The notes under the pieces: generated by a model
Seen by the model: the letters and a program-made list of their open reading frames with translations, nothing else
What the model was told of the DNA's origin: nothing
Databases searched by the model: none
Shown: piece by piece, positions 4,189 to 30,834 of the stretch
Position numbering within the stretch: position 1 is the first letter of the stretch
Layout of the letters: each line of letters starts with the position of its first letter
Program-made: the position numbers and the translations under genes
Source of the DNA: an uncultured Planctomycetia bacterium
GTDB taxonomy: Bacteria > Omnitrophota > Gorgyraeia > Duberdicusellales > 4484-171
Reading direction: 5' to 3'
Length of the DNA stretch: 53,026 bases
Assembly (NCBI GenBank): GCA_964590995.1
Contig: CAZPYY010000002.1
Span: forward strand, 1-53,026

Positions 4189-4217
4189 TTGACAAGCCTA
4201 CCGGTGTGTGATATTAT
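4189..4217 (+). promoter_or_regulatory. Sigma70-type promoter of the hydrogenase operon (TTGACA-17-TATTAT with TGn extended -10, A/T-rich UP region)
   Basis: TTGACA at 4189-4194, TG at 4209-4210, TATTAT at 4212-4217, preceded by an A-rich tract. It sits in the only sizeable intergenic gap before the 16-kb gene train. Confidence 0.6.
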
Positions 4218-4229
4218 TAAATATCTTAC

Positions 4230-4247
4230 TTGTGATTTTATTCACAA
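4230..4247. promoter_or_regulatory. Rex-type operator, 18-bp palindrome TTGTGATTTTATTCACAA
   Basis: Matches the published Rex box consensus TTGTGAAnnnnTTCACAA in both half-sites. It lies 13 nt downstream of the -10 element, over the expected transcription start. A rex gene is encoded in the same operon (18101-18754). Confidence 0.65.
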
Positions 4248-5334: not shown

Positions 5335-6151
5335 TTGTAAAAACCCTTATCGACCAATCAAAGCTGAAGTTCTAGAAGTTATAGAAGAGACTCCGACTAT
5401 AAAGACGATAAGATTCAAACCGCAAGGGCCGGTGGGTTTTGCTACCGGTCAATTTATAGAGGTGACTATTCCTGGTGTAGGAGAAGCGCCTTTTACCCCG
5501 TCTTCAAAGTCTACAGTAAAGGATTTAATGGAAGTTACTGTGATGAGGGTTGGTAAAGTTACTGAGAAAATTCATCAACTTAAGAAGGGAGATGTTATTG
5601 GCGTAAGAGGCCCAATGGGTCAAGGATATCCCTTAGATAAGTTTAAAGGCAAAGAAGTTTTAGTCGTTGGAGGAGGGTGCGGTTTTGCGCCTCTGCGTAG
5701 CCTTATGTATGCACTTTTCCATGAGAGCAGCGAGTTTAAAAAACTAATTTTCAGAGGTGGTTGCAAGACCTCTAAGGAGTTAGTCTATAGAGGCGAGATG
5801 GGCGAATGGGCTAAGCGGGGTGATTTAGATTTAAAGCTTACCGTAGATAGAGGTGATAGTGGATGGAAGGGTAATGTTGGTGTTGTCACTACTATATTAG
5901 ATGATTTAGGTATGGATTATAAAAAAGGTATTGCTGTTGTTTGTGGACCGCCGATAATGATGAAATTTACCACTAAGAAACTACTTGAGATAGGTTTTGC
6001 CGATGAGAATATCTACCTTTCCATGGAGAAGAACATGTCTTGTGGTATTGGTAAGTGCGGACATTGTCGAATTGGAGTCTACTATGCTTGCAAAGATGGT
6101 CCGGTCTTTACCTATGATAAGATAAAGAACTTTCACGAAATTTGGGATTAA
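5327..6151 (+). CDS. FAD/NAD(P)-binding oxidoreductase with C-terminal 2Fe-2S (sulfhydrogenase gamma / AsrB / PyrK-like)
   Basis: FNR-like fold motifs (FTPSS.., VVGGGCGFAPL) and a C-terminal CGIGKCGHCRIG..C cluster motif. GTG start overlaps the upstream gene by 8 nt. Confidence 0.75.
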   Translation: MINCKNPYRPIKAEVLEVIEETPTIKTIRFKPQGPVGFATGQFIEVTIPGVGEAPFTPSSKSTVKDLMEVTVMRVGKVTEKIHQLKKGDVIGVRGPMGQGYPLDKFKGKEVLVVGGGCGFAPLRSLMYALFHESSEFKKLIFRGGCKTSKELVYRGEMGEWAKRGDLDLKLTVDRGDSGWKGNVGVVTTILDDLGMDYKKGIAVVCGPPIMMKFTTKKLLEIGFADENIYLSMEKNMSCGIGKCGHCRIGVYYACKDGPVFTYDKIKNFHEIWD

Positions 6152-6152
6152 A

Positions 6153-6719
6153 ATGAGTTCAAGCGCAGAACAATTACATCAAGGCAAGTTAAATCTAAAT
6201 GCTAAGAAGTCAAAGGATAAGCGATTATTCGTTGATTTAGACCTTTGTGCTTCTAGCCAATGTAAAGAGTGCGTACTTGAATGCAGTTACTATTACCATA
6301 CCCAGAGTCCGGTGAATAATGGTATTATCTCAGTAGTTGAACTTGCTACCTATGCTCTTGCCTGTCGTAGGTGCGAAGAACCCCACTGTGTTAATTCCTG
6401 TCCTGCTGATGCCTTAGAGCAGCAAAAGGATAAGGACAGCTTGCTAATCCGGCATAATATGCTTTGTATAAGTTGTAAATCTTGTTCCCATGCCTGCCCC
6501 TACGGTACTATATACCCGGAGCATGTTCCTTACCTGACCCATAATTGTGATTTTTGTTTAGACAGAAGAGATGAAAAGAATGAGCCTCTATGTATAAAGA
6601 GTTGTCCTTATGGAGCTTTAAGTTTAAAAGAAGGAAGTATTGAGCTTGATGAAAATACATTTTTAGTTGGTGATAATTTGATAGTTCACTCTACACATTG
6701 GAATAGGGATAAAGTATGA
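6153..6719 (+). CDS. Poly-ferredoxin, HycB/DmsB-like (four Cys clusters)
   Basis: Four Cys groups are present: CKECVLEC, CRRCEEPHCVNSCP, CISCKSCSHACP and CDFC..CIKSCP. This arrangement matches electron-transfer subunits of formate hydrogenlyase type. Confidence 0.75.
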   Translation: MSSSAEQLHQGKLNLNAKKSKDKRLFVDLDLCASSQCKECVLECSYYYHTQSPVNNGIISVVELATYALACRRCEEPHCVNSCPADALEQQKDKDSLLIRHNMLCISCKSCSHACPYGTIYPEHVPYLTHNCDFCLDRRDEKNEPLCIKSCPYGALSLKEGSIELDENTFLVGDNLIVHSTHWNRDKV

Positions 6720-7636
6720 TTTTAGTTTATCTTATAGTATTTGGTTTTTTGGCAACAGCAGTTATTGGGTTGTTGGCTAGTTGGATAGACCGTAAGGTTA
6801 CTGCCCGGGTTCAATATCGAGTAGGGCCGCCAATATTACAGCCTTTAATAGATATTGTAAAGCTTTTAGGTAAGGAGACCCTTATCCCTCGCGGTTCCTC
6901 GAAAACAACATTTTTGTTGGCGCCAGTTATTGGTTTCGCCAGTGTAATCTTAGTATCTACTCTTTTGTGGTTAAACAATATCAACCCCGGCAAGACTTTC
7001 CTTGGCGATTTAATAGTAGTTTTGTATTTATTAACTATTCCTTCAATGAGTATTATTATTGGCGGGTTTGCTTCTCGTAACCCCTTAGCTAGTTTAGGTG
7101 CATCTCGGGAGATGAAACTCATCTTAAGTTATGAACTCCCTTTTGTCTTAGCTATATTAGTTCCGATTATAAAATCTAACTTTTCTTTACGCTTAGGTGA
7201 GATTATAACTTTCCAGGCTCAAAATGGAGTAATCTTGGGAAATTTATCAGGGATATTGGCTTTTATTGTACTTATAATGTGTATGCAGGCAAAATTAGCT
7301 TTAGTCCCTTTTGATATTCCTGAAGCTGAGACCGAGATAGTTGGCGGTCCGCTAATAGAGTATTCAGGAACAGGGCTGGCTATTTATAGACTCACTAAAA
7401 ATATGCTTTTATTTGTCTTACCATTCTTTTTAATGATTCTTCTTATGGGTGGTTTAAGATTTGATGGGATACACTTACTTTATGGAATATTAAAGTATGT
7501 TGGTCTGGTTGCCCTTATAACAGTTATTAGAAATACCAATCCTCGAGTGAGGATTGATCAGGCAATGCGGTTTTTCTGGGGTCCAATGAGTGTAATTGCT
7601 ATAATTTCAGTTGTTTTAGCATTAATCGGAAGGTAG
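6716..7636 (+). CDS. Membrane subunit, NuoH/HycD/MbhM/EchB family
   Basis: 306 aa, about 8 TM helices. Motifs DRKVTARVQYRVGP and PFDIPEAETEIV are hallmarks of the NuoH family. Confidence 0.85.
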   Translation: MILVYLIVFGFLATAVIGLLASWIDRKVTARVQYRVGPPILQPLIDIVKLLGKETLIPRGSSKTTFLLAPVIGFASVILVSTLLWLNNINPGKTFLGDLIVVLYLLTIPSMSIIIGGFASRNPLASLGASREMKLILSYELPFVLAILVPIIKSNFSLRLGEIITFQAQNGVILGNLSGILAFIVLIMCMQAKLALVPFDIPEAETEIVGGPLIEYSGTGLAIYRLTKNMLLFVLPFFLMILLMGGLRFDGIHLLYGILKYVGLVALITVIRNTNPRVRIDQAMRFFWGPMSVIAIISVVLALIGR

Positions 7637-7637
7637 T

Positions 7638-8078
7638 ATGAGTGTAAAATTAAAAGCATTATTAAAATCACCTTGGGTTTTTCATCTTTCTACCGGGAGT
7701 TGTAATAATTGCGATATTGAGATATTAGACTGTCTTACTCCTAGGTTTGATGTTGAAAGGTTTGGAATGCTTTTAGCTGGGAGCATAAAGCATGCCGACG
7801 TACTCTTAGTTACTGGTTCAGCTAATAGAAAATCAATGGAGCGAGTCAAGAGATTATATGAGCAAGTACCTAAGCCTTGTTTGGTAGTGGCAATTGGAGA
7901 GTGCTCTTTATCTCGAGGTATGTTTATACATAGCTACAATTGTCCGGTTCCGATAGATAAGATTATACCAGTAGATGTTTACATACCGGGATGTCCGCCT
8001 AAGCCAGAGGCTATCATTGCTGGTGTGGTTAAATTGGTCGGAAAGGTAGAAGATACGCTTAAGAAGAAGGGAAAGTAA
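7638..8078 (+). CDS. [NiFe] hydrogenase small subunit, NuoB/HycG/MbhJ type
   Basis: CNNCDIE, GECS and PGCPPKPE provide the four Cys ligands of the proximal (N2-like) 4Fe-4S cluster. Confidence 0.85.
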   Translation: MSVKLKALLKSPWVFHLSTGSCNNCDIEILDCLTPRFDVERFGMLLAGSIKHADVLLVTGSANRKSMERVKRLYEQVPKPCLVVAIGECSLSRGMFIHSYNCPVPIDKIIPVDVYIPGCPPKPEAIIAGVVKLVGKVEDTLKKKGK

Positions 8079-8551
8079 TGTATCGAAGCGACGTTTTAGG
8101 AGATATTAACCAAAAATTTAAAGAGGGCATCATTGATGTTATTGATAAGTCTTCTACCCGAGTATATATCGAGATTAAGGCTTCTTCGCTTGTTAAGATC
8201 GCAAACTATATATTTAAAGAGCTAAAAGCTAGATTTAGTATTGCTTCTGGAGTAGATGTTCGTTCTCATATGGAGATTTTATATCACTTTACCTTAGAAG
8301 ATATAAATTTAGTAATTTCTCTAAGAGTAAAGTTAGATAAGTCAAAGCTAGAGATAGATTCGCTTACTCCTTCATTTGAAGCTGCAAATTGGATTGAGCG
8401 GGAAATCCATGAGATGCTGGGAATTAATTTTAAGGGCCATCCGGATTTAAGAAGACTTCTTTTGTCAGAGGATTGGCCTGAAGGTGTCTATCCTTTACGC
8501 AGAGACTATAAAGAGTGGGATAAAAAAGCAATTAGAGATAGAGGAGTATAG
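8078..8551 (+). CDS. NuoC/MbhK/HycE-N-like subunit
   Basis: ANWIEREIHEMLGINFKGHPD matches the NuoC (30 kDa subunit) signature. The ATG overlaps the upstream stop. Confidence 0.8.
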   Translation: MYRSDVLGDINQKFKEGIIDVIDKSSTRVYIEIKASSLVKIANYIFKELKARFSIASGVDVRSHMEILYHFTLEDINLVISLRVKLDKSKLEIDSLTPSFEAANWIEREIHEMLGINFKGHPDLRRLLLSEDWPEGVYPLRRDYKEWDKKAIRDRGV

Positions 8552-9735
8552 TGGCAAGAACAATAGTACCGATAGGGCCTTATCATCCTTTACAAGAAGA
8601 ACCAGAGTTCTTTACCCTTACTGTTGAGGGTGAAAAGATTATTGCTGTTGATGTTGAGGTTGGTTATAACCACCGGGGCATAGAAAAGCTCTCCGAGATG
8701 AAAACTTTTGATCAGTCTACCTTTGTTATTGAGAGAATTTGCGGTATTTGTTCTACTAGCCACCCTTTTGCTTACACTAGAGCAGTTGAGGATATTATCC
8801 CCTTGGAGGTTCCTGAGCGGGCTAAGTATATCCGAACCATAATCGCTGAAGGTGAGAGAATACACTCGCATCTCTTATGGTTAGGTTTAGCTGGACACTT
8901 CTTAGGATATAATACAGTCTATATGTGGGCTTGGAAATTACGCGAAGAGATTTTAGATGCAATGGAAGTTCTATCCGGAAATAGAAATAATTATGCGATG
9001 TTTAAACCTGGGGGGGTAAGGAGAGATATAAAGGCTGAGGATATTCCAGGAGTAGTTAAGAAGGTAGATTCAATCATACCGACGTTAATAATGCTTAAGA
9101 AAGCTGTTATGGATGATCCAGTCTTACATGCCCGAACTAAAGGGGTGGGTAAGCTTAGCAGGGAAGAAGCAATAAATTATTCGGCCTTGGGTCCAACCGC
9201 AAGAGCATCTGGTGTAGCCAGAGATTTGAGAAAAGATTGTCCTTATGGAGCTTATGAGAGGTTAGATTGGGAGATGATTGTAACCTCTAATGGTGATGTC
9301 TTTGATAAGTTAGTAGTAAGAGTTCTAGAGACCTTTGAGTCTATAAAAATAATAAAGTACTGTCTCCTGAATCTTCCCAAAGGCGAGATCGATGCTCAAA
9401 TCAAGAGCATTCCTTCCGGAGAAGGTATTGGCCAGATTGAAGCGCCAAGAGGAGAGTGCTTCCATTATGTAAAGAGTGACGGCACTAACCGGCCGGCTCG
9501 TCATAAGGTCAGGGCGCCAACTTTTATGAATCTGCCAACTTATAAATCAACTGTTGTTGGGCAGACTATATCTGATGCTACAATAATCTTTGCAGCTATT
9601 GATCCTTGCTATTGCTGTACAGAGAGAATGGCTGTACGCAATACTAGCGGTGAGAAAATTTATAACGGAGAAGATTTGATTCGGCTTTCACAAGAGAAGA
9701 CCGCTAAGATAAAAAATAAATTAGGTATTAAATGA
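8551..9735 (+). CDS. Group-4 [NiFe] hydrogenase large (catalytic) subunit, NuoD/HycE/MbhL type
   Basis: The N-terminal RICGICSTSH motif (CxxC, Cys64/Cys67) and C-terminal DPCYCCTER motif (DPCxxCxxR) are both intact. This indicates a true Ni-Fe site rather than an Mbx or complex I relative. A 35-aa tail follows the Arg cleavage position. GTG start. Confidence 0.9.
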   Translation: MARTIVPIGPYHPLQEEPEFFTLTVEGEKIIAVDVEVGYNHRGIEKLSEMKTFDQSTFVIERICGICSTSHPFAYTRAVEDIIPLEVPERAKYIRTIIAEGERIHSHLLWLGLAGHFLGYNTVYMWAWKLREEILDAMEVLSGNRNNYAMFKPGGVRRDIKAEDIPGVVKKVDSIIPTLIMLKKAVMDDPVLHARTKGVGKLSREEAINYSALGPTARASGVARDLRKDCPYGAYERLDWEMIVTSNGDVFDKLVVRVLETFESIKIIKYCLLNLPKGEIDAQIKSIPSGEGIGQIEAPRGECFHYVKSDGTNRPARHKVRAPTFMNLPTYKSTVVGQTISDATIIFAAIDPCYCCTERMAVRNTSGEKIYNGEDLIRLSQEKTAKIKNKLGIK

Positions 9736-11387
9736 GCTTAGTTGAACAATTATTCAAGATTGATAACCTTTCCATTTTTGTAGGGATATTTATCGGAATA
9801 TTCTCCTTAGTGACAATTATCTATTCAGCAGGCTTTATGAAGAGAAGTAAGGGGCTGATTCGTTATTACCTATATATAGTCCTTACTCTCCTAGCTTCTT
9901 TAGGTGCTGTTTTCTCCAACAATCTTATTCTGTTTATGGTCTTCTGGGGCTTCCTAGGCCTGCTTTTATACCTTTTGATTAGTTTTGGCGAGAAAGAAAA
10001 TACTTCAGCTACAGCAAAGAAGGCTTTTATAATAATTGGCGGTACCGATGCCTTTATGATATTGGGTTTAGCCTTTGTCTGGAAGATCTCCGGAGCATTG
10101 CAGATGGATAAAATAACTATCGCCTTAAACAGCAAGATAGCTGTTTGGGCTTATCTTTGCCTTGCTGCTGGTGCTTTTGCTAAGGCTGGAGCCATGCCCT
10201 TTCATACTTGGGTTCCTGATACTGCCCAAGATGCACCCACTCCGGTAACTGCCTTCCTACCGGCTTCTTTAGATAAGCTTCTTGGTATTTACTTCTTAGC
10301 CAGATTATCTTTGAATATCTTTGAGATGGATAGTGGTATGAATACATTTTTAATGGTGGTGGGCAGCATTACTATTGTTGCTGCAGTTATGATGGCTCTA
10401 ATCCAGCATGATTTAAAGAGGCTTTTGGGCTATCATGCTGTAAGCCAGGTTGGGTATATGGTTTTGGGTATTGGTACTGGTAGCCTTTTAGGCATCGCTG
10501 GAGGCTTATTTCATATGCTTAATAACGCTATTTATAAATCCTGTTTATTTTTAGGCGGGGGTGCAGTTGAGAAGAAAGCAGGGACAAGTGATTTAGAAAA
10601 ATTAGGCGGGTTTGCTAAGATTATGCCTATTACTTTTGGAGCCTTCTTGTTGGCTTCTTTAGCTATATCCGGGATTCCGCCTTTTAACGGTTTTGCTTCT
10701 AAGTGGATGATTTATCAAAGCATAATCAATACAGCTAGTAGTGGTGGGTATCTCTGGGTAGTATGGCTTATTGCTGCTTTGTTTGGCAGTGCTCTTACCT
10801 TAGCGAGTTTTATGAAGCTGGTGCATGCTGTTTTCTTGGGCCAACCTTCTGGGGAAGAGAAGGCATTAAATAATAAGAGGGGTGAAACTACCCCGGCTAT
10901 GTGGATTCCTCAAGTTTCTCTGGCCCTTCTTTGTCTTATCTTTGGTGTATTTGCTTATCAAATACCGCTTAAGATATTTATCCTTCCTAGTTTAGGGGGC
11001 GAGGTTGAGTTCCTTGGAATTTGGAATGCAAGTTTGGCTACTGTATTAATAATTGTAGGAATTGTAATTGGTATGATAATTTACCTTTTAGGTAAGGTGA
11101 CTAAGGCAAGAGAAGTGGGCGGTTTTGTAGGAGGAGAGAATTTAGAGAAACATCCTCAGATGCGAATTTCCGGAACTGAATTTTACAACACAATTCAGGA
11201 AATGGGAATTTTAAAGATTATTTATGAACTGGCCAAGAAAAAGGTATTTGATCTTTATGATATAGGTAGAAGAGTAGCCTTTGTTTTTGTTAGAATACTG
11301 CGCTATATCCACAATGGTGTGCTCCCTACATATATGGCTTGGTGTCTTTTAGGTATGATAATACTTTTTTATGCTTTGCGAGGCTAG
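9732..11387 (+). CDS. mrpA: Antiporter-like subunit, MrpA N-terminal / NuoL family
   Basis: 551 aa polytopic protein. Contains the proton-conducting membrane transporter motifs HTWVPDTAQDAPTPVTA and LLGYHAVSQVGYM. Confidence 0.8.
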   Translation: MSLVEQLFKIDNLSIFVGIFIGIFSLVTIIYSAGFMKRSKGLIRYYLYIVLTLLASLGAVFSNNLILFMVFWGFLGLLLYLLISFGEKENTSATAKKAFIIIGGTDAFMILGLAFVWKISGALQMDKITIALNSKIAVWAYLCLAAGAFAKAGAMPFHTWVPDTAQDAPTPVTAFLPASLDKLLGIYFLARLSLNIFEMDSGMNTFLMVVGSITIVAAVMMALIQHDLKRLLGYHAVSQVGYMVLGIGTGSLLGIAGGLFHMLNNAIYKSCLFLGGGAVEKKAGTSDLEKLGGFAKIMPITFGAFLLASLAISGIPPFNGFASKWMIYQSIINTASSGGYLWVVWLIAALFGSALTLASFMKLVHAVFLGQPSGEEKALNNKRGETTPAMWIPQVSLALLCLIFGVFAYQIPLKIFILPSLGGEVEFLGIWNASLATVLIIVGIVIGMIIYLLGKVTKAREVGGFVGGENLEKHPQMRISGTEFYNTIQEMGILKIIYELAKKKVFDLYDIGRRVAFVFVRILRYIHNGVLPTYMAWCLLGMIILFYALRG

Positions 11388-11390
11388 ATA

Positions 11391-11939
11391 ATGGTTGAGC
11401 TATATATCTTACTAATATTTATGATTGTGGGAGCAATTGTTGCTACTGAGCTAAAAGATCTTCTATCTTCAGTAATAGCAGTTGGTGCTGTAGGCTTAGG
11501 GCTTTCCATAGTCTTTTTAATACTTAAAGCACCGGATGTAGCCATTACCCAGCTAGTGGTTGAAATATTGTGTTTGATTATTTTGATTCGAGCAACCCTA
11601 AAGAAAGATATTCCCTTTGCAACAACAGGTAGGTGGTTTTTAAATACGCTTATTACTGTTACTTTTATTACCATGTTTTTATTTGTCGCTGCAAAAGCCT
11701 TGAAAGAGTTGCCAAGTTTTGGTTATCCGATTATGAAGGTTGCTAAAACATACCTTGCTAATGGTTTACAACAGACTGGTGCAGCTAATGTTGTTTCTTC
11801 GGTAATATTAGATTTTAGGGCATATGATACCTTGGGTGAAGCCACGATATTATTCACTGCTGTAATTGGAGTCTTGGCCGTTGTGCGTAAAATCGGTAGA
11901 AAAAAACAAGATGAGACAATAGAGGAGGAAGATGAGTAG
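11391..11939 (+). CDS. MrpA C-terminal-like / MbhD-MbhE-like membrane subunit (DUF4040 plus MnhB-type segment)
   Basis: APDVAITQLVVE (DUF4040-like) and ILDFRAYDTLGEATILF (MnhB-like) motifs. Confidence 0.65.
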   Translation: MVELYILLIFMIVGAIVATELKDLLSSVIAVGAVGLGLSIVFLILKAPDVAITQLVVEILCLIILIRATLKKDIPFATTGRWFLNTLITVTFITMFLFVAAKALKELPSFGYPIMKVAKTYLANGLQQTGAANVVSSVILDFRAYDTLGEATILFTAVIGVLAVVRKIGRKKQDETIEEEDE

Positions 11940-12384
11940 AGAGCACGATAAGGGTATGTCAGTAATTGTTAAGACGATCACTCGTCTTACAATAGGACTA
12001 ATACTGCTCTATGGTATTTATATAGTCACTCATGGTCATGTATCACCGGGTGGAGGGTTTGCCGGAGGTGTTATTATAGCCCTTTCTTTTGTCCATCTTA
12101 TGTTAGCTTACGGTAAGGAAACTGCCCTGAAAAAGTTTCCTAAAGGCTTGGTTTCGTTCCTAGAGAGCACCGGTGCAGTAATGTTCTTAGCTATAGCTTT
12201 CCTGGGTTTTACTGGAGGATACTTTTTCTTAAATTTTATAAGTAAGGGAAAGCCCTACGAGTTATTTAGTGCCGGAATTATCCCTCTTTGTAATATAGCA
12301 ATATGTCTTAAGGTCGGTGCCGGACTTTTTGCAATATTTGTTGCCTTAGTCTTATTGAAATTAGAGTCAGAGGAGAAGAAATGA
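11932..12384 (+). CDS. mrpB: Mrp antiporter subunit B-like (MnhB/MbhF)
   Basis: 150 aa with 4 TM helices and an SPGGGFAGGV motif typical of MnhB domains. Confidence 0.7.
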   Translation: MSREHDKGMSVIVKTITRLTIGLILLYGIYIVTHGHVSPGGGFAGGVIIALSFVHLMLAYGKETALKKFPKGLVSFLESTGAVMFLAIAFLGFTGGYFFLNFISKGKPYELFSAGIIPLCNIAICLKVGAGLFAIFVALVLLKLESEEKK

Positions 12385-12725
12385 TAATATATTTGCTTTG
12401 TTTAATGCTTTTTTGCGTAGGGCTATATTGTATCTTACGAAAGCGTAATATTATTAAGATTATCGTTGGTGTCATTATATCTGAGTATGCAGCTAATCTG
12501 TTTTTTATCTTGGTAGCCTATCGTATTGGCGGCAGAGCTCCCATATTCTCATCTCAAGCAGATATCTCTGCTTCTACTATGGTCGATCCCTTACCGCATG
12601 CTTTGGTTCTTACAGCTATTGTTATTGGTTTAGCTACCACAGCTTTATTAGTTGCTATTGCTATGAGAATTTATGAAAAATATGGTACTTTTGATATTAC
12701 AAAAATTAGGGAGTTAAGAGGATGA
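12381..12725 (+). CDS. mrpC: Mrp antiporter subunit C / NuoK-like (MbhG)
   Basis: 114 aa with 3 TM helices. Size, position and the DPLPHALVLTAIVIG motif match MnhC/NuoK. Confidence 0.75.
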   Translation: MIIYLLCLMLFCVGLYCILRKRNIIKIIVGVIISEYAANLFFILVAYRIGGRAPIFSSQADISASTMVDPLPHALVLTAIVIGLATTALLVAIAMRIYEKYGTFDITKIRELRG

Positions 12726-14227
12726 TTCCAGGCATTAATACAATACCCCTTTTTGTGGCAATAGCCTTAGCCGGAGCTTTCTTAATTTCTCTGGCTGGTA
12801 AAAAAATAAAGTGGGTACCAGACACATTGGGGAATCTTACTACTTTTGCTTTACTTTGCCTCTCTATCTTTGCGGTGAAGCTCTCAGGTTCTCAGGGAAC
12901 TCTGGTTTATGGTGTTGGTTATTGGAATCCGCCAGTAGGCATAGCCATGGTTCTAGATGGCTTAACTTCATTTATGCTTGTTACTGTAAACCTAGTTGCT
13001 TTTATCATCTCGATCTATGCGATAAATTACATGGAGAAGTATACTTCAAAGTGGAAATTCTATACCTTGTTCCTTCTGATGTTAGCCGGAATGAATGGAG
13101 TAATTATTACCGGTGATATCTTTAATTTGTTTGTATTCTTAGAGATTGCTTCGGTAGCAAGTTATGCTTTGGTTGCTTTTGGAACTGAACGCCATGAGCT
13201 AGAAGCTGCTTTTAAGTATGCGGTTATGGGTACAGTAGGTTCACTATTTATTCTTCTGGGGATTGCCCTTTTATATAGCCGCACCTCTACCTTGAATATG
13301 GCTGATATGGGTAGTGTTTTAGCTGGGAAGGGAAGTACTGACTTGATTCGTTTGGTGAGCGTTTTATTCCTAATGGGTTTTGGTCTTAAAGCTGCCCTTG
13401 TCCCTTTTCATGCCTGGTTGCCTGATGCTCATCCTTCAGCACCGGCTCCGATATCCGCTATGCTTTCGGGAGTATTAATAAAATCTCTAGGTATCTATGC
13501 CTTGATTAGAATATTCTATAATGTAGTAGGGATGAGTCCTGAACTAGCCTCAATAATAATGCTTTTAGGAGCAATATCTATGGTTGTTGGTGGATTGCTG
13601 GCTTTAGGGCAATGGGATTTTAAACGGCTCTTAGCTTACTCTTCTATAAGCCAGGTAGGTTATATTGTTTTAGCTATTGGTCTTGGTACACCCTTGGGAA
13701 TATTAGCCGGGCTCTTTCATCTCTTTAACCACTCAATATTTAAGTCGTTATTATTTTTGAATTCAGGAGCAGTAGAATACTCTACCGGAACCCGAGATCT
13801 GCAGCAGATGGGCGGTTTAGGAAAGAAGATGCCCTTAACCGGCTTAACTAACCTAACAGCTTCTATGTCTATTGCCGGTGTTCCGCCCTTTAGTGGTTTC
13901 TGGAGTAAGCTATTTATTATAGTCGCAATAGTCCAAGCCGGTTACTATGGGTATGCTTTCTGGGCTGTTTTAGTGAGTGTGTTGACCTTGGCTATGTATG
14001 TTAAGGTTACCAAGTATGCTTTCTTTGGAACCTTGAAGGAGAAGTGGGAACAGATAAGAGAAGTACCTGCATTTATGAAGCTTTCAATGGCAATGTTAGC
14101 ATTCATTTGTTTAATAGGGGGAGTATTGCTTATTTCAGGGATAAAAGAGATTTTTCTGCAGCCGGCATCAAAAGCTCTCTTAGATGGCAGTAAGTATAGT
14201 AGTTTGGTTCTAAGTCAGGTGAAATAG
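12722..14227 (+). CDS. mrpD: Antiporter-like subunit MrpD / NuoM-N family (MbhH)
   Basis: 501 aa. Motifs FHAWLPDAHPSAPAPISA and LLAYSSISQVGYI. Confidence 0.85.
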   Translation: MIPGINTIPLFVAIALAGAFLISLAGKKIKWVPDTLGNLTTFALLCLSIFAVKLSGSQGTLVYGVGYWNPPVGIAMVLDGLTSFMLVTVNLVAFIISIYAINYMEKYTSKWKFYTLFLLMLAGMNGVIITGDIFNLFVFLEIASVASYALVAFGTERHELEAAFKYAVMGTVGSLFILLGIALLYSRTSTLNMADMGSVLAGKGSTDLIRLVSVLFLMGFGLKAALVPFHAWLPDAHPSAPAPISAMLSGVLIKSLGIYALIRIFYNVVGMSPELASIIMLLGAISMVVGGLLALGQWDFKRLLAYSSISQVGYIVLAIGLGTPLGILAGLFHLFNHSIFKSLLFLNSGAVEYSTGTRDLQQMGGLGKKMPLTGLTNLTASMSIAGVPPFSGFWSKLFIIVAIVQAGYYGYAFWAVLVSVLTLAMYVKVTKYAFFGTLKEKWEQIREVPAFMKLSMAMLAFICLIGGVLLISGIKEIFLQPASKALLDGSKYSSLVLSQVK

Positions 14228-14725
14228 ATGAAGAGCAGAGTAGTTTTATTTATAATCGCATTTTTAATCTGGTCCCTATTGAACTGGATACCGGATGCAC
14301 AACACCTTATAGTCGGAGTTTTTGTTGCTGCCCTTGTAGCCTTTTTAACCGGAGATTTATTTGTTACCCGGCCGCATGTATTACAGCATCCGTGGCGTTA
14401 CTGGTATTTCATTGCGCATTATTTGCCGGTATTTTTATTAGAAGTTGTGAAAGCCAATATTGATGTTGCTTATCGGGTATTACATCCTGATTTGCCGATA
14501 AATCCCGGAATTGTAAAGGTAAAAACAATTTTAAAGAGCGATACGGCTTTAACATTTTTGGCTAACTCGATAACTTTAACTCCTGGTACTATGAGTGTGG
14601 ATATAGACAGGGATAATGGTGTTTTATATATACACTGGATTAATGTGAAGGCAAAAGATATTGAAAGTGCTACAAAAATCATTGTCCAGCGCTTTGAAAA
14701 AATACTAAAGAAGATTTTTGATTAA
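14228..14725 (+). CDS. mrpE: Mrp antiporter subunit E (MnhE/MbhA)
   Basis: 165 aa with two N-terminal TM helices followed by a soluble domain. ANIDVAYRVLHP and SITLTPGT motifs are typical of MnhE. Confidence 0.7.
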   Translation: MKSRVVLFIIAFLIWSLLNWIPDAQHLIVGVFVAALVAFLTGDLFVTRPHVLQHPWRYWYFIAHYLPVFLLEVVKANIDVAYRVLHPDLPINPGIVKVKTILKSDTALTFLANSITLTPGTMSVDIDRDNGVLYIHWINVKAKDIESATKIIVQRFEKILKKIFD

Positions 14726-14735
14726 AGGGGATAAT

Positions 14736-15104
14736 ATGAAGATGTTTAGATGGATTGCTGGTGCGATAGTTTTAACGGGAATTATAGGTCTGATTATAAT
14801 TCGGCCGCTCCCTTTCCTTTTCTACGCTGATCTTCCTTATGTGAATTTCTTAGGCAGGGCTCTCTACATACTTATTTTAGCTTGTTTTTTGTGCCTCTAT
14901 CGTATCTATAGGGGGCCGACCGGTGCTGATCGGGTAGTGGCAATTGATATTTTGGGTATCATGATTGCTGGTTTGTGCGCAGTATTGACTATTTCTACTG
15001 GAAGGTCTTGGTATATTGATATTGGAATAGCCTGGGCTTTGCAGAGTTTTATAAGTACCTTAGCGCTCTCCAAATATTTAGAAGGAAGAGGGTTCGATGA
15101 GTAG
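14736..15104 (+). CDS. mrpF: Mrp antiporter subunit F (MnhF/MbhB)
   Basis: Three TM helices and a RIYRGPTGADRVVAID motif typical of MnhF. ATG 14736 follows AAGGGG at 14725-14730 and is preferred over the overlapping track start at 14718. Confidence 0.7.
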   Translation: MKMFRWIAGAIVLTGIIGLIIIRPLPFLFYADLPYVNFLGRALYILILACFLCLYRIYRGPTGADRVVAIDILGIMIAGLCAVLTISTGRSWYIDIGIAWALQSFISTLALSKYLEGRGFDE

Positions 15105-15432
15105 TATTATTGGTTTGGTATTTATTAGTTTAGGATTAGCTTTTGATCTTTTTGGTGTTTTAGGCTTAGTGCGCCTTCCCGATGTTTACAATCGTCTGCA
15201 GGCAGCTACAAAGTGTGTCACTTTAGGCACTTGCAGTATTCTATTCGGAACATTTCTTGTGGTTGGCCCGGTAGCATCAGGCATGAAAGCGCTCTTGTGT
15301 ATGGTCTTTTTACTATTAACCTCTCCGGTGGCTGCCCATGCTATAGCCAGAGGTGCGCATAGGGCAGGGGTAAAGCTTAGCAAAGAGAGCGTTGTAGATA
15401 AGTACTTGGAAGATAAAGAGGGAGAAGTGTAG
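15097..15432 (+). CDS. mrpG: Mrp antiporter subunit G (MnhG/MbhC)
   Basis: 111 aa. LVRLPDVYNRLQAATK and LTSPVAAHAIARGA motifs are typical of MnhG. Confidence 0.75.
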   Translation: MSSIIGLVFISLGLAFDLFGVLGLVRLPDVYNRLQAATKCVTLGTCSILFGTFLVVGPVASGMKALLCMVFLLLTSPVAAHAIARGAHRAGVKLSKESVVDKYLEDKEGEV

Positions 15433-15461
15433 TTTAAAAGGTTAAAGTTCAAAGTTAGAAG

Positions 15462-16076
15462 ATGCAAATGCGGTTACCAAAGATCAGAGAATTAACTGAA
15501 GCTATAAAAGCCCTTATAAAAGGGCCTTATACTTCAAAGTTTCCTATTGAGCCACACCAACCTCACCCTAATTTTAGAGGACAGCCCAAGTTTAACGACC
15601 AGAAGTGTGTGGGTTGCACTGCCTGTAAAGAGGTTTGTCCGGTAGAGGCGATTGATTATCAAGATGTTGTTGACGATAAGCTTAATCCGCGAAGAGTTAT
15701 GATTCACTATACTGATACCTGCATATTCTGCGGTCAGTGCGAAGCTGCTTGCATTGCCGATAATGAGGGTATCAAATTATCTAATGATTGGGAGCTTTCC
15801 TTCTTTGATCGCAGTAAAGCTGATGAGCGAATAGAGAAAGAGCTGCAACTCTGCGAGATTTGCGGCGAAGTTATTGCTTGTTGTGACCACCTAGAGTGGA
15901 TCGTTAAGAAGGTAGGAGAGCTTAGTTTTTCCAGCCCGACACTATATCTTCTACGTCTCAGGAGCTTAGGTATTGTAGACCAAAACATCATATCCGCCTT
16001 AGCCGATCAAGGACGCTCTGACCGGGTAAAGATTCTTTGTGCTAGCTGCAGAAGAAAGACCACCCTGACTATTTAA
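15462..16076 (+). CDS. 2x[4Fe-4S] ferredoxin subunit, NuoI/MbhN/HycF-like, with a Cys-rich C-terminal extension
   Basis: CVGCTACKEVCP and CIFCGQCEAAC motifs. The extra C-terminal region carries CEICGEVIACCDH and CASCRRK. Confidence 0.75.
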   Translation: MQMRLPKIRELTEAIKALIKGPYTSKFPIEPHQPHPNFRGQPKFNDQKCVGCTACKEVCPVEAIDYQDVVDDKLNPRRVMIHYTDTCIFCGQCEAACIADNEGIKLSNDWELSFFDRSKADERIEKELQLCEICGEVIACCDHLEWIVKKVGELSFSSPTLYLLRLRSLGIVDQNIISALADQGRSDRVKILCASCRRKTTLTI

Positions 16077-16081
16077 TTGAA

Positions 16082-16582
16082 ATGAGAACTAATTTGAAAG
16101 ATATACTTAAAGGAAAAATTGTTATCGTTGGTATCGGAAACATTATCCGCGGGGATGATGGCTTCGGACCTTTGCTGATTGAAAAGATAAAGGGTGGGGT
16201 TGAGATGATGTGTTTAGATGGCGGGATTGCTCCTGAGAATTACCTGGGCAAAATCACCAAAGAAAATCCCGATACGGTTTTAATTATTGATGCTGTTCAT
16301 CTAGGCAAGAATCCTGGTGAGTACGAGATTTTAAAGGGAGAAGATATAGCAAAGTGCGGATTCACTACTCATGATATCTCCCCGGTAATGTTTATAGAGT
16401 ATTTAACCAGAGAGACCGAGGCTAATATTTATATGCTTGGGGTTCAACCTCAAGGTATTGAATTAGGTTCAGAGATGTCCAATAAGCTTAAAACAGCATT
16501 AGAGGAACTATCAGGAAAAATTTTGGAGGCAGTCAATGCACGAGACTCACTTAATAAAACCGATAATCAAAGGCATAGTTAA
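16082..16582 (+). CDS. hycI: Hydrogenase maturation endopeptidase (HycI/HyaD family)
   Basis: VGIGNIIRGDDGFGP, IIDAV and the HD motif provide the metal ligands of this protease family. This fits the 35-aa C-terminal tail on the large subunit. Confidence 0.8.
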   Translation: MRTNLKDILKGKIVIVGIGNIIRGDDGFGPLLIEKIKGGVEMMCLDGGIAPENYLGKITKENPDTVLIIDAVHLGKNPGEYEILKGEDIAKCGFTTHDISPVMFIEYLTRETEANIYMLGVQPQGIELGSEMSNKLKTALEELSGKILEAVNARDSLNKTDNQRHS

Positions 16583-16778
16583 ACACGCCCAAGAAGAAGG
16601 GGCAAAGAATATAACCAAGCTAAGGTTAAAGATTGGAGAGCTTATTGGTGTTAAAGAAGAGTCGTTTCGCGAGACTTTTAACCTTTTAGCTAAGGGGACT
16701 ATGCTTGAAGGTACAGAGTTGGAGATTGTTTTTTTTCCGAGTACGCGCATAGAAGTTGTTTCCTTTGATTGTGATTAG
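16536..16778 (+). CDS. hypA: HypA-like nickel metallochaperone, truncated form lacking the zinc-finger domain
   Basis: Starts with the MHE nickel-binding N-terminus and shows HypA-like KLRLKIGELIGVKEESF and LEGTELEI segments. It is only 80 aa and has no CxxC pairs. A strong GGAGG lies 6 nt upstream. It overlaps the protease gene by 47 nt. Confidence 0.6.
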   Translation: MHETHLIKPIIKGIVKHAQEEGAKNITKLRLKIGELIGVKEESFRETFNLLAKGTMLEGTELEIVFFPSTRIEVVSFDCD

Positions 16779-16789
16779 GGGTAGAGGAG

Positions 16790-18097
16790 ATGTGTTACGC
16801 AATTCCCGGAAAGGTAAAAGCGATAAGGGGAAGAGAAGTTTTAGTAGACTACTTCGGTGAAGAGAAAAAAGCAATTAATGAGTTCTACGATATTGCTGTT
16901 GGAGATTATATCTGTGCTCAAGGCGGGTTTGTAATAAAAAAAGTTAAAGAAGATGAAGCTAGAGAAGTCTTATCAGCTTGGCAGGAATTATTCTTCGAGC
17001 TCCAAGACGTTGACCTGCGTCTTTCCCGGCTGGACTCAGAAGAAGGTAGCGATAAGAAGCTACGTCTTATTTTAGATAAGGCCTTAGAAAATATCCCTTT
17101 AAAGAAAGATGAATTATCGTATTTGCTTGACTTAGGTAGCCAACAATCTTGCCAGCTTCTTTATAAATCGGCAAATTTCTTACGCCAGAAATACCATAGA
17201 AACTCCTGTTGTATCCACGGAATAATTGAGATTTCAAATAATTGTCAGCAACAGTGTACTTATTGTGGGATATCAACGCACAATAAAACGCTCTTGCGTT
17301 ACCGGATGAGTCCGGATGAGATTATCGAGACTTCTGTTGAGGCAGTAGAAAGATATGGTTTCCAGGCTCTGGTTTTACAGAGCGGAGAAGATCCTGGCTA
17401 TAGCGTAGATGAGTTAGCTATAACCATAAGGAAAATTAAGGAGAAGGTTCCAGTATTAATCTGTATCAGCTTTGGCGAGGTGGGATTAGAGGGATTAGAA
17501 AGACTTTATCTTGCCGGAGCAAGAGCTATACTTATGCGTTTCGAAACCTCTAACCCGAAAATTTTTGCCCAGGTTCATCCCGGGCAGAAACTCGAAACTA
17601 GGTTAGAACATATTAGGAAAGCTTCCTTATTAGGTTATCTGATTATGACCGGTGCGCTTATTGGTCTGCCCGGACAAACTAATCATGATATTATAAATGA
17701 TATTTATCTGGCTAAAGAATTAGGCGCTGAGATGTATTCTTTTGGTCCTTTTCTGCCACATCCCCAAACACCTTTGGGGAATCTTGCACCTCCGAGGGAA
17801 GAGTTGGCTTTAAAGACCTTAGCCTTGGCTCGGCTCATTGATCCTGAGCGAGCCAAAATTTTAGTAACTACAGCCCTAGAGACTCATGCACCGACTACTC
17901 GCAAGAGGGGGTTACTTTCAGGTGCTAACTCTTTGATGCTTAATGTTACACCAGTTAAATACCGAAAGCTTTATGAGATTTACCCTAATAAGGCTTATAA
18001 CAAGGAGTTAATAGATAAGCAAATTGATGCGGCAATAGCTTTACTTAAATCTTTAGGCCGGGCTCCTACAGATTTAGGAGTAAGCGAGGTGAATTAA
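16790..18097 (+). CDS. hydE: Fusion protein: HypC/HupF-type [NiFe] chaperone (residues 1 to about 72) plus HydE-type radical-SAM maturase (residues about 90 to 435)
   Basis: N-terminus MCYAIPGKVKAI..VGDYICAQGGFVIKKV..EEA matches HypC and includes Cys2. The remainder aligns with HydE: CQQQCTYCG (CX3CX2C, Cys152/156/159), LQSGEDP, GLPGQT, GPFLPHPQTPL, YPNK. It is a single uninterrupted ORF. Confidence 0.8.
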   Translation: MCYAIPGKVKAIRGREVLVDYFGEEKKAINEFYDIAVGDYICAQGGFVIKKVKEDEAREVLSAWQELFFELQDVDLRLSRLDSEEGSDKKLRLILDKALENIPLKKDELSYLLDLGSQQSCQLLYKSANFLRQKYHRNSCCIHGIIEISNNCQQQCTYCGISTHNKTLLRYRMSPDEIIETSVEAVERYGFQALVLQSGEDPGYSVDELAITIRKIKEKVPVLICISFGEVGLEGLERLYLAGARAILMRFETSNPKIFAQVHPGQKLETRLEHIRKASLLGYLIMTGALIGLPGQTNHDIINDIYLAKELGAEMYSFGPFLPHPQTPLGNLAPPREELALKTLALARLIDPERAKILVTTALETHAPTTRKRGLLSGANSLMLNVTPVKYRKLYEIYPNKAYNKELIDKQIDAAIALLKSLGRAPTDLGVSEVN

Positions 18098-18100
18098 ACT

Positions 18101-18754
18101 ATGGGAAGAAAAAATAACAAGAATAGCTTTTCTTTGGAGACAATTAGGCGTCTTAGTCTCTATTTACGGAACTTAAAGAGATTAAAGGAGCAGAATATAG
18201 ATATTATTTCTTCAAATGAGCTGACAAAATTTCTTAATATTACTCCAGCACAATTTAGAAAAGATCTCTCTTTCTTTGGCGGGTTTGGCAAAAGAGGCGT
18301 TGGTTATAATGTTGAGAAGTTAACTGAAGAGATAGAGAATATATTAGGGGTAAACAAAGAGTGGGCAATTGCCATAGTTGGCGTGGGAAAGCTAGGAAGT
18401 GCGCTCTTAGGCTTTGAAGGGTTTTCTAAATTTAATATTAAAATAACCTTTGCTTTTGATATTGATAGAGATAAGGTAGGTAAGGTAAGGGAAGGGGTAA
18501 AGATTAACCACATAAAGGAGATAAAGGATATTATCAGGCAGAATAATATCAAAGTTGCAATAATTTCTACACCGCCGGAAGCTGCTCAAGGAGTTGCTGA
18601 TGAGTTAGCTTCCTCAGGTATTAAGGGCATTTTAAATTTTGCACCGATAGTGCTAAAAGTACCTCAAGCTGTATCAGTATCTAATGTTGATATGGCTTCT
18701 GAGCTAGAGAGTTTAATATTTCTTACTAAACGAAGACAAGGAAGGACAGGATAA
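18101..18754 (+). CDS. rex: Redox-sensing transcriptional repressor Rex
   Basis: N-terminal winged-helix region (RRLSLYLRNLKRL..ISS.EL) followed by a Rossmann GVGKLGSAL NADH-binding domain. 217 aa. Confidence 0.85.
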   Translation: MGRKNNKNSFSLETIRRLSLYLRNLKRLKEQNIDIISSNELTKFLNITPAQFRKDLSFFGGFGKRGVGYNVEKLTEEIENILGVNKEWAIAIVGVGKLGSALLGFEGFSKFNIKITFAFDIDRDKVGKVREGVKINHIKEIKDIIRQNNIKVAIISTPPEAAQGVADELASSGIKGILNFAPIVLKVPQAVSVSNVDMASELESLIFLTKRRQGRTG

Positions 18755-18758
18755 AAAT

Positions 18759-20255
18759 ATGGCCACAAAGACAATTTCACCGGATTCTTGGCTAAAGTGC
18801 CAAATCAAAAAAGAGCAGGTAGAAAAATACCTAAACAGGGGTAGGCACTTTATCGATCAGGAAGCAATTGATAGGGCCTTAGCCTCCGAACTTGAACCAT
18901 CTAAGGGCCAGATTAAAGATATTCTCGATAAATCTCTAGCTATTGAGACCTTAGAACTCAAAGAAGCAGCACTACTATTAAATGTTGAGGATGAGGATTC
19001 CTTAGTAAAAATGGCTCAAGTTGCTGGAGAGATTAAGAGGAAGGTTTATGATAATCGGATTGTTACCTTTGCTCCTTTATACATGGGTAATCTTTGCGTG
19101 AATAATTGCCTTTATTGTGGGTTTAGAAAAGATAATCTCAATATTCATAGAAGAGTGCTTCGTTTAGATGAGGTAAAGAGAGAAGCCGAAGTTTTAGCCG
19201 GTAGAATTGGCCATAAGCGCTTGATAGTAGTCTATGGAGAACATCCTCAGACCGATATAGATTATATGAGTTCAACCATAAAAACAATCTATGGAGTCAA
19301 AACAAAGACTAAAAATGGCTATGGCCAGATCCGCAGAGTTAATGTCAATGCTGCGCCTTTGTCTATTGAGGACCTTAAAATTTTACAAAAGAGCGGAATC
19401 GGAACCTATCAGGTATTCCAAGAGACCTATCACCCTGATACTTATCAGGCTCTTCATCCCAAAGGAACCCTAAAATCTGATTATCAGTGGCGATTATATT
19501 GTATTCACCGGGCATTTGAAGCTGGCATAGATGATGTTGGCATTGGTGTTCTTTTTGGTTTGTATGATTGGAAGTTTGAAGTTTTAAGTCTTCTTCTACA
19601 CTCACGAGAACTAGAAGCAAGATTTGGTGTTGGACCACATACAATTTCTTTTCCGCGTCTTGAGCCAGCAGCTAATACACCTTTTACCCAAGAATCTCGT
19701 TATAAAGTAAGCGATGAGGATTTTAAAAAGCTCATTACAATTATAAGATTAGCTGTCCCTTATACTGGAATGATTATTACTGCCCGGGAAAATGCCCAGA
19801 TGCGAAGGGAAGCTATTCCTTTAGGTTGTACCCAGACCGATGCCTCTACTCGCATTGGTATCGGCGCTTATAGTGGCCGCTATAGGGAACAAGAAGGCCA
19901 AAGACAACAATTCTTCTTGGGAGATACCAGGAGTTTAGATGAGGTAATAAGGGAATTGTCTTGTGCCGGTTATATCACTTCTTTTTGTACTGCTGGTTAT
20001 CGTTGTGGAAGAACCGGCAAGTGCATTATGGAACTCTTGAAGAATGGAGAGGAGGGTAAGCTTTGCAAATTAAATGCTGTACTTACCTTTAGAGAGTGGT
20101 TGGATGATTTTGCTACTACCGAGACTAAAGAGGCTGGCGAAGAGATTATTCAAAAAGAGTTGGCTGAGATTAAATCCCTTATGCCAAAGACTTACCCTAA
20201 AGTTCTAGAATATTATCAGAGAATTAAGAGTGGCCAGAGAGATCTTTATTTTTAA
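18759..20255 (+). CDS. hydG: HydG-like radical-SAM enzyme (ThiH/HydG family with HydG-type C-terminal domain), variant Cys motif
   Basis: CVNNCLYCGF (CX3CX2C, Cys113/117/120). The C-terminal SFCTAGYRCGRTGKC..(13)..CKLNA resembles the HydG CTACYR.GRTG...C.PNA region. 498 aa. Confidence 0.75.
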   Translation: MATKTISPDSWLKCQIKKEQVEKYLNRGRHFIDQEAIDRALASELEPSKGQIKDILDKSLAIETLELKEAALLLNVEDEDSLVKMAQVAGEIKRKVYDNRIVTFAPLYMGNLCVNNCLYCGFRKDNLNIHRRVLRLDEVKREAEVLAGRIGHKRLIVVYGEHPQTDIDYMSSTIKTIYGVKTKTKNGYGQIRRVNVNAAPLSIEDLKILQKSGIGTYQVFQETYHPDTYQALHPKGTLKSDYQWRLYCIHRAFEAGIDDVGIGVLFGLYDWKFEVLSLLLHSRELEARFGVGPHTISFPRLEPAANTPFTQESRYKVSDEDFKKLITIIRLAVPYTGMIITARENAQMRREAIPLGCTQTDASTRIGIGAYSGRYREQEGQRQQFFLGDTRSLDEVIRELSCAGYITSFCTAGYRCGRTGKCIMELLKNGEEGKLCKLNAVLTFREWLDDFATTETKEAGEEIIQKELAEIKSLMPKTYPKVLEYYQRIKSGQRDLYF

Positions 20256-30740: not shown

Positions 30741-30805
30741 GTTTAGGTTTTACGCGGAATAATAGCCTAAAATTTTTTATTTCCGGGCCAAGAAAACAGG
30801 GTGCA

Positions 30806-30834
30806 CCCCGACATAACAGTCGGGGTTTTATTTT
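30806..30834 (+). terminator. Intrinsic terminator acting as riboswitch expression platform
   Basis: Hairpin CCCCGAC-ATAACA-GTCGGGG followed by TTTTATTTT, ending 5 nt before the ATG at 30840. Confidence 0.8.

Follow-up and report, generated by a model that had tools for sequence, protein, structure and literature searches.

Why should a gene at the end of a [NiFe] hydrogenase operon encode, in a single chain, a HypC chaperone and a radical S-adenosylmethionine (SAM) enzyme resembling the [FeFe] hydrogenase maturase HydE? The question is raised by an open reading frame (ORF) on contig CAZPYY010000002.1 of an Omnitrophota assembly (GCA_964590995.1), of which we analyzed positions 1 to 53,026 (hereafter the 53-kb window). 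The maturation of [NiFe] and [FeFe] hydrogenases is usually treated as the work of wholly separate machineries, and this fusion joins parts of both. On balance, we favor the proposal that the fusion is a [NiFe]-dedicated maturase coupling HydG/HydE radical SAM chemistry to the HypC delivery chaperone, and we regard this as somewhat better than an even prospect. The fusion suggests an undescribed route of building the [NiFe] active site. Open-access papers and bioRxiv preprints yielded no description of the fusion, or of a role for HydG or HydE in [NiFe] maturation, in agreement with the first-pass annotation of this DNA, which knew of no described case; other sources may hold one.

The fused protein and its relatives

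The fusion gene and its parts are as follows.

16790..18097, + strand: HypC–HydE fusion gene, a single uninterrupted ORF (435 codons, 435 aa)
16790..16984, + strand: HypC domain, residues 1–65 (profiles; Cys2 invariant, Gln44 at the position of HypC His51)
16985..17059, + strand: conserved helix and linker, residues 66–90 (alignment and AlphaFold2)
17060..18097, + strand: HydE-like radical SAM (beta-alpha)8 barrel, residues 91–435 (profile and structure match)
17207..17218, + strand: clade signature C140-C141-I-H143 in beta-strand 1, equivalent to V51-H52-I53-R54 of Thermotoga maritima HydE (TmHydE) (alignment)
17243..17266, + strand: radical SAM CX3CX2C motif, C152, C156 and C159 (sequence motif)

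The frame is unbroken, as had been reported at first pass, and it begins behind a strong ribosome-binding site, with 11 nt between the stop codon of the preceding hypA and the fusion start. The N-terminal HypC/HupF domain with its Cys2, also claimed then, is borne out by Pfam (PF01455, HupF_HypC, residues 1–64, 51 bits; gathering score 28.5) and by hypC_hupF (TIGR00074), with which the isolated N-terminus scores 51.3 bits (cut-off 48) and the full protein 46.9 bits. Pfam places Radical_SAM at residues 146–303. The top NCBIfam match of the fusion was rSAM_HydE (TIGR03956) at 231 bits, followed by PylB (137), BioB (106) and HmdB (74). Compared with solved structures, the C-terminal 350 residues matched TmHydE end to end at 222 bits, and PylB reached 87 bits.

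An AlphaFold2 (AF2) model was built from an alignment of 77 homologues, with a mean predicted local distance difference test (pLDDT) of 90.8 and a predicted template-modeling score (pTM) of 0.91. The predicted order is an oligonucleotide-binding (OB) fold (1–52), a long helix (54–78), a short loop (pLDDT about 72) and the barrel, and the pTM suggests a defined two-domain unit. Foldseek superposed the barrel on TmHydE with a template-modeling (TM) score of 0.94–0.96 and a root-mean-square deviation of 1.6–1.9 Å, against TM scores of 0.86 for PylB and 0.82–0.87 for BioB. Profile, sequence and fold scores agree with the first-pass grouping of the C-terminal part with HydE and rule out a BioB or PylB identity. 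The plain name HydE was too strong: rSAM_HydE is the best match and the alignment to TmHydE runs end to end, but the score of 231 bits lies below the equivalog cut-off of 254.6, which makes the domain HydE-like only. The radical SAM part represents a diverged paralogue and falls outside standard HydE.

The fused HypC begins MCYAIPG, and Cys2 is kept in 155 of 156 fused homologues. The position of E. coli His51, its alignment verified against the HypC of 2Z1C, 3VYR and 2OT2, does not hold His: it is Gln44 in the window protein and Gln in 150 of the 156. In E. coli, HypC C2, possibly H51, and HypD C41 coordinate iron, and their mutation abolishes activity (PMC12134894). Loss of H51 would fit an iron environment unlike that of the HypC–HypD scaffold. 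Between the domains W64, F68, F69, L71, D75, L78, S79 and D88 are conserved; since this segment is itself conserved, it is not a random linker.

The architecture is widespread. In a protein search, both Pfam domains occurred together in more than 120 clusters (90% identity), down to 60% identity, and nearly all of the named clusters were Omnitrophota metagenome-assembled genomes (MAGs). The HypC N-terminus was present in 22 of the best 150 representatives at 50% clustering, two of them 906 and 881 aa long. When each GTDB species was represented by one genome, a scan gave 25 fusion loci, among them a complete 1.5-Mb chromosome and contigs of 0.6–2.7 Mb; a few of these MAGs carry the labels Auribacterota, Spirochaetota or Gammaproteobacteria. 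A metagenome scan, with a profile built on the 135 N-terminal residues specific to the fusion, gave more than 251 confirmed matches, of which 80 loci were listed. Together with two loci from other routes and the window itself, these made up the 108 fusion loci (L numbers below; P numbers are proteins) that we analyzed. Automated labels on the proteins were 'radical SAM protein', 'biotin synthase', 'HypC/HybG/HupF family chaperone' and 'HydE'.

In a neighbor-joining tree of 168 HydE domains with HydG as the sole outgroup, 47 sequences (42 fused and five fragments or unfused proteins) formed one clade, and canonical HydEs fell in another. Four other double fusions scored 225–253 bits with rSAM_HydE, all below the cut-off; the whole-protein score of the L005 fusion is higher and includes a fused HydG domain. 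At L012 a canonical HydE scores 360 bits and the fusion 228 bits. By these sequence comparisons, the fused HydE is a paralogue distinct from the housekeeping HydE.

TmHydE positions known from the literature were then mapped onto the alignment and surveyed across the 47 clade members. Both clades retain the radical SAM cysteines, Q107, L157, R159, M224, T268, T269, M291 and K309 (K or R); M224, M291, K309 and T268/T269, residues implicated in complex-B turnover, are kept in 41–47 of 47. A scan of every position found seven canonical-conserved residues replaced in the clade (R54, T103, T134, R155, Y156, G195 and V289) and two clade-specific gains, Cys52 and His54, each in 47/47, at a site where canonical HydE has [H/Y/F]-x-R. 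The S3 product site is not preserved, with His at 54 (47/47), Phe or Cys at 134 (42/47) and Gly or Ala at 155 (47/47). In HydE the S3 site comprises one Thr and two Arg, mutation of which impairs maturation, and an Fe(CO)2(CN) species has been seen there attached to M224, at a site that leads out towards HydF (PMC10114646); the product cyanides contact R54, T134, R155 and T269 (PMC11826987). From these two studies we infer that R54, T134 and R155 are the S3 triad. The clade may retain chemistry on the HydG synthon while its product site has been rebuilt into a potential Cys/His metal site. An earlier candidate, replacement of M224 and M291 by Leu, was ruled out by the computed positions, and the idea of lost dimerization residues was dropped.

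Seven further HydE representatives (P0151, P0187, P0203, P0205, P0207, P0215 and P0249; 416–448 aa) have N-terminal extensions of about 80–120 residues without a HypC profile match and may be other fusions; P0142 (803 aa) may join HydE to another maturase.

The hydrogenase operon, gene neighborhoods and HydG

In the window, the fusion lies near the 3' end of a hydrogenase gene train, whose features are listed below.

4189..4217, + strand: sigma-70-like promoter TTGACA-17-TATTAT, the best such site, about 60 nt 5' of the first operon gene
4230..4247, + strand: Rex operator-like palindrome TTGTGATTTTATTCACAA, one mismatch to the consensus, directly 3' of the promoter
4309..6719, + strand: AsrA-like (Fer4_22), AsrB-like (FAD/NAD and Fe-S) and HycB-like ferredoxin genes (Pfam)
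6716..16076, + strand: complete group-4 [NiFe] hydrogenase of the Mrp-Mbh type (Pfam), with genes for MbhM, small subunit, NuoC-like, large subunit, MbhH, MbhD/E, MnhB, MbhG, MrpD, MnhE, MrpF, MrpG and MbhN
8551..9735, + strand: [NiFe] large subunit with RICGIC and DPCYCC, then a 37-residue C-terminal extension (motifs read in translation)
16082..16582, + strand: HycI-type large-subunit endopeptidase (PF01750; TIGR00072, 110.6 bits)
16536..16778, + strand: mini-HypA, 80 aa, with an N-terminal MHE nickel motif (profile positions 1–68 of 112)
18101..18754, + strand: Rex-family redox-sensing repressor, with N-terminal winged helix and Rossmann GxGxxG (read from sequence)
18759..20255, + strand: HydG (TIGR03955, 463 bits, cut-off 312; TiHydG, 443 bits), C-terminal motif CTAGYRCGRTGKC...C

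A client enzyme is at hand: the large subunit has both CxxC ligand pairs and a C-terminal extension, with HycI next door. The group-4 large subunit with intact pairs (CGIC, DPCYCC) and its endopeptidase were correctly recognized at first pass, as was the HydG-like gene downstream of the fusion. Similar Omnitrophota operons have been classed as 4g (PMC8542988), and the genes at 4309..6719 form a putative NAD(P)H electron-input module of the hydrogenase. The hypA-like gene 5' of the fusion proved to be present, in a truncated 80-aa form that has no Zn-finger domain and overlaps hycI by 47 nt. An 80-aa HypA also occurs at L001, L004, L005, L009, L011, L013, L016 and L029, and one of 84 aa at L032; at the Ech-like loci L018–L023, HypA is full-length (111–127 aa). 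No HypB was found near the mini-HypA genes.

HydA, HydF, HypB, HypD, HypE and HypF were all absent from the 53 kb in a Pfam search covering all ORFs of 100 aa or more and again in motif and hidden-Markov-model scans of the six frames, in line with the first-pass reading; the six frames held no stand-alone HypC either. Between 16076 and 20255 we found no convincing terminator. With the promoter and Rex operator in front, 4309–20255 is plausibly one Rex-controlled transcription unit, which suggests that the hydrogenase and its predicted maturases are under NADH/NAD+-responsive control. Rex-like sites with up to three mismatches are no more numerous across the window than expected by chance, so the case for this operator rests on its position and quality. 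An ORF orthologous to Rex is found in this place at 35 of the 108 fusion loci, in many of them between the fusion and HydG.

Context was counted at the 49 of 108 loci flanked on each side by 5 kb or more of sequence, with features scored within 10 kb.

Any [NiFe] marker: 42 of 49
[NiFe] large subunit: 41 of 49
HydG: 24 of 49
HydF: 2 of 49
Canonical HydE: 2 of 49
HydA: 2 of 49

The association with hydF and hydA that is typical of HydE is thus not seen, the two counts of 2/49 standing against 41/49 for the large subunit. Signature motifs of HypD, HypE and HypF occurred at none of the 108 loci. The gene directly 5' of the fusion was HypA at 35 and HycI at 15 of 87 scorable loci, counts that are too low because the ORF filter sometimes retained an antisense ORF over hypA.

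Three types of [NiFe] operon carry the fusion: Mrp-Mbh, a group-3-like type with the order AsrAB, small subunit, large subunit, and a short Ech-like group-4 type with a CbiM/NikM Ni/Co permease 3' of the fusion. At L017, L018, L019 and L021, the permease gene just downstream of the fusion is of the CbiM/NikM type for Ni/Co uptake, and its product has a PDGLE domain. A distant relative, P0133 (L032, 881 aa, 35% identity), is encoded within a group-3-like [NiFe] cluster with a mini-HypA adjoining, and the unfused clade member P0141 (L033) sits directly 3' of a large-subunit C-terminus (...DPCMSCAAH...) and 5' of HydG.

The first-pass annotation had implied that [FeFe] machinery would be lacking, and had raised the question of whether the architecture accompanies group-4 [NiFe] but not [FeFe] enzymes. 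The search of public genomes upheld the [NiFe] half, with 108 loci and a large subunit at 41/49; the implied lack does not hold at L012, L084 and L083, where HydF, canonical HydE or HydA occurs. At L012 and L084, a [NiFe] operon ending in HycI–HypA–fusion is closely preceded by genes for HydF, HydG and a stand-alone HydE.

HydA-like genes were located at L083:13328–15139, L054:9634–11400 and L104:16193–17968, 3–6 kb 3' of the fusion and Rex, at loci with group-3-type [NiFe] enzymes; the L083 protein has all three H-cluster motifs. One neighborhood can therefore hold both hydrogenase classes. A HydF co-occurrence search with a fragment query returned mostly fragments on short contigs.

At L014:192–1109, in an Auribacterota MAG, a PurU-like formyltetrahydrofolate deformylase gene (ACT and Formyl_trans_N) lies directly 5' of HycI and the fusion. 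It recalls the use of formyltetrahydrofolate by HypX for the aerobic CO ligand, and coincidence is possible.

HydG is tied to the fusion most directly by HypC–HydE–HydG triple fusions in at least four proteins (L005, 921 aa; L029, 915 aa; P0122, 906 aa; P0133, 881 aa), in which HydG is joined in frame at the C-terminus; L005 is a complete chromosome and L029 a 1.26-Mb contig. Such repeated fusion is strong evidence that the HypC, HydE and HydG activities work together.

The window HydG itself passes the equivalog test (463 against 312 bits), and its alignment reaches the end of TiHydG. Its C-terminal auxiliary-cluster cysteine motif is C-x5-C-x5-C-x13-C, not the textbook C-x2-C-x22-C. A HydG from Thermodesulfovibrio, in a cluster ordered HydA / TM1266 / ammonia-lyase / HydG / HydF / HydE, is 70% identical to it, and a second canonical [FeFe] cluster holds one at 68%. 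In all 120 closest HydGs (among L001–L016; P0391–P0510), Gly stands at the second textbook Cys and a Cys three residues on; an additional Cys (GRTGxC) is present in 93 of them. The variant motif was considered as a [NiFe]-specific trait and ruled out: the Thermodesulfovibrio and L030 HydGs, both in canonical [FeFe] clusters, share C-x5-C, which therefore marks a HydG subclass, not a link to [NiFe] enzymes. As an ordinary orthologue, the window HydG probably serves [FeFe] maturation in any organism that has that system.

A proposed [NiFe] maturase and competing readings

HydG is a tyrosine lyase that makes CO, CN and an Fe synthon, and canonical HydE pairs two Fe units at S3 and passes them to HydF. 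A six-step mechanism can be inferred for the fusion. HydG, encoded two genes downstream or in the same chain in some relatives, would cleave tyrosine and build the [Fe(Cys)(CO)2(CN)] synthon. The HydE-like domain, which keeps the HydE catalytic apparatus, would adenosylate the cysteine sulfur of the synthon and remove the cysteine backbone. The rebuilt S3 site, with R54/T134/R155 lost and Cys-x-His gained, may hold a single Fe-carbonyl/cyanide unit, which would be handed to Cys2 of the tethered HypC and inserted by HypC into the large subunit. Mini-HypA would then add Ni, and HycI would cleave the large-subunit C-terminus. The second cyanide of Fe(CN)2(CO) could be spare CN- from HydG.

Cross-talk between HydG/HydE and [NiFe] maturation, the central suggestion of the first-pass annotation, is the best-supported reading because the fusion is lineage-wide, its radical SAM part groups with HydE, its synteny is with [NiFe] genes, and HydG is adjacent or joined in triple fusions. 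The suggestion needs amending in two respects: HydG is an ordinary orthologue, and the HydE part is a divergent paralogue. Single-hydrogenase genomes also fit: Ace Lake Omnitrophota MAGs have one hydrogenase each (PMC8542988), so those with a group 4g or 3b [NiFe] enzyme have no [FeFe] enzyme.

Several observations weigh against a [NiFe]-dedicated maturase. The HydG product has two CO and one CN, whereas the [NiFe] site has one CO and two CN, and ligand exchange has to be assumed. Retention of M224 and M291, proposed for Fe dimerization, leaves room for a di-iron product. The clade was drawn from a single tree without support values. HydG is within 10 kb at only 24/49 well-flanked loci, and the window HydG, being 68–70% identical to HydGs of canonical HydA/HydF/HydE clusters, is not itself specialized. 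HydF, HydA or a canonical HydE lies near the fusion at some loci. Seven of the 49 (L015, L024, L065, L080, L092, L095 and L106) have no hydrogenase gene nearby, nor HycI, HypA or HydG within 10 kb. HypCDEF genes are recorded for at least two Omnitrophota genomes, 231 and 104, in supplementary data of Seymour et al. (PMC10066038) that cover few genomes and cannot be linked to the fusion. Genome 143 of these data has hypA only and no HydG.

Among the seven hydrogenase-free loci, an ABC-2 transporter follows the fusion at L015 and L024.

The most far-reaching form of the proposal is that the whole Fe(CN)2(CO) unit is made from tyrosine by HydG and the Cys-x-His HydE tethered to HypC, with no need for HypD, HypE, HypF or carbamoyl phosphate. 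We hold this as a tentative possibility, with the balance against it. If true, it would be a second, independent [NiFe] cofactor pathway with a defined anaerobic CO source. All [NiFe] enzymes are said to need HypA–F, and the origin of the anaerobic CO ligand is described as the most pressing open question of the field (PMC12134894).

A more conservative alternative would confine the HydG/HydE-like module to giving only CO, or Fe-CO, to the fused HypC, while both cyanides would be produced as usual by HypE and HypF on HypC–HypD. It presumes that HypD, HypE and HypF are encoded elsewhere, and would give this lineage its own solution to the lack of a known anaerobic CO source, an acknowledged gap of the standard pathway (PMC12134894). 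All of the [NiFe] synteny evidence applies to it equally, the ligand stoichiometry fits more easily, and HypCDEF genes are present in some Omnitrophota genomes. Yet the fused HypC lacks the His51 thought to hold Fe on the HypC–HypD scaffold, HypD/E/F motifs are missing from all 108 loci despite the adjacent hypA and hycI, and a separate cyanide pathway would be redundant because HydG makes CN besides CO. We consider this reading rather improbable.

Could the radical SAM domain act on something other than the HydG synthon, for instance a small molecule that contains sulfur or a large-subunit residue, with the HypC tether serving for targeting? The score below the equivalog cut-off, the seven changed HydE positions and the presence of HydG near only about half of the loci would allow it. 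It is made unlikely by the triple fusions with HydG in at least four proteins, including the 35%-identical lineage, by the conserved complex-B residues, and by a barrel that superposes on TmHydE at 1.6–1.9 Å.

A role in [FeFe] maturation appears very unlikely. The fusion would then be a lineage-specific HydE variant acting with HydG and HydF on HydA, its HypC-like domain a generic iron chaperone, and its place in [NiFe] operons would reflect only shared regulation of hydrogen metabolism, for example by Rex. We know of no HypC action outside [NiFe] maturation, which counts against such a role. The orthology of the window HydG to canonical-cluster HydGs, the HydF, HydA or canonical HydE genes near the fusion at L012, L084, L083, L054 and L104, the retained M224, M291 and K309, and the Rex gene and Rex box are what it has in its favor. 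However, a separate canonical HydE is present wherever HydF and HydG accompany the fusion (L012, L084), the fusion directly follows hycI and hypA, and the large subunit (41/49) far outnumbers HydF and HydA (2/49 each) within 10 kb. In addition, the S3 residues for HydA maturation are lost in the fused clade (PMC10114646), and a [NiFe] enzyme is the sole hydrogenase reported for some Omnitrophota MAGs (PMC8542988).

The possibility that hypC and hydE are separate genes, linked only through misassembly or a frameshift error, is effectively refuted by the identical in-frame architecture in 108 independent loci from various studies and assemblers, including a complete chromosome and contigs of 0.6–2.7 Mb, by the conserved linker sequence and by the one compact unit predicted by AF2.

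Other window genes and comparison with known systems

Elsewhere in the window, 45125–48238 encodes an EF-G homologue of 1037 aa, whose GTPase domain is preceded by an N-terminal extension of about 345 residues, rich in Lys and Glu and resembling a coiled coil. Genes for cobalamin salvage and its lower ligand are clustered at 30801–36416 (BtuF-like binding protein, FecCD permease, ABC ATPase, CobC-like phosphatase, CobU, CobT and CobS), with a TonB-dependent receptor downstream of it at 38891–40789.

The fusion family is conserved and environmentally common, and is a concrete candidate for the supply of tyrosine-derived CO and CN to the [NiFe] site. Its clade offers a natural experiment in how the HydE product site decides what leaves the enzyme, and HycI, mini-HypA, HypC–HydE and HydG together could give a compact cassette for heterologous production of [NiFe] hydrogenases.

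Compared with HydE (TIGR03956; T. maritima 3CIX and 7O1O), the fusion shares the (beta-alpha)8 barrel end to end (38% identity, TM score 0.94), CX3CX2C, Q107, L157, R159, M224, T268/T269, M291 and K309, and a frequent partnership with HydG. It differs from HydE in scoring 225–253 bits, below 254.6, and forming a separate clade; in the change of R54, T134 and R155 to His, Phe/Cys and Gly/Ala and the gain of an invariant Cys52; in having an N-terminal HypC domain and no auxiliary-cluster cysteines; and in occurring in [NiFe] operons, not in hydEFG/hydA clusters. With HypC/HybG/HupF (PF01455, TIGR00074; 2Z1C, 2OT2), it has in common Met-Cys2, an OB-fold with a C-terminal helix, and a gene that closes a [NiFe] operon next to hypA and hycI. 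Unlike free HypC, a protein of 75–100 aa, it is covalently tied to a radical SAM enzyme, has Gln for His51 in 150/156 and has no HypD encoded nearby.

As in the HydG–HydE–HydF pathway, HydG is adjacent or fused, and the HydE-like domain probably takes its Fe(Cys)(CO)2(CN) product; the acceptor would be HypC and the [NiFe] large subunit, not HydF and HydA, with HydF in 2/49 neighborhoods. HypX, likewise an accessory to the Hyp system that supplies a diatomic ligand, provides a precedent for lineage- or condition-specific ligand sources, but it has an unrelated fold, converts formyltetrahydrofolate to CO, and works with HypC–HypD under oxic conditions. Enzymes of the HmdB/HcgA type, which serve the cofactor of [Fe]-hydrogenase, the third hydrogenase class, belong to the same BioB/HydE-like radical SAM group. 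The fusion matches them at only 74 bits (cut-off 321), and they have no HypC domain; their service to a third class shows that hydrogenase cofactor synthesis has drawn on this fold more than once.

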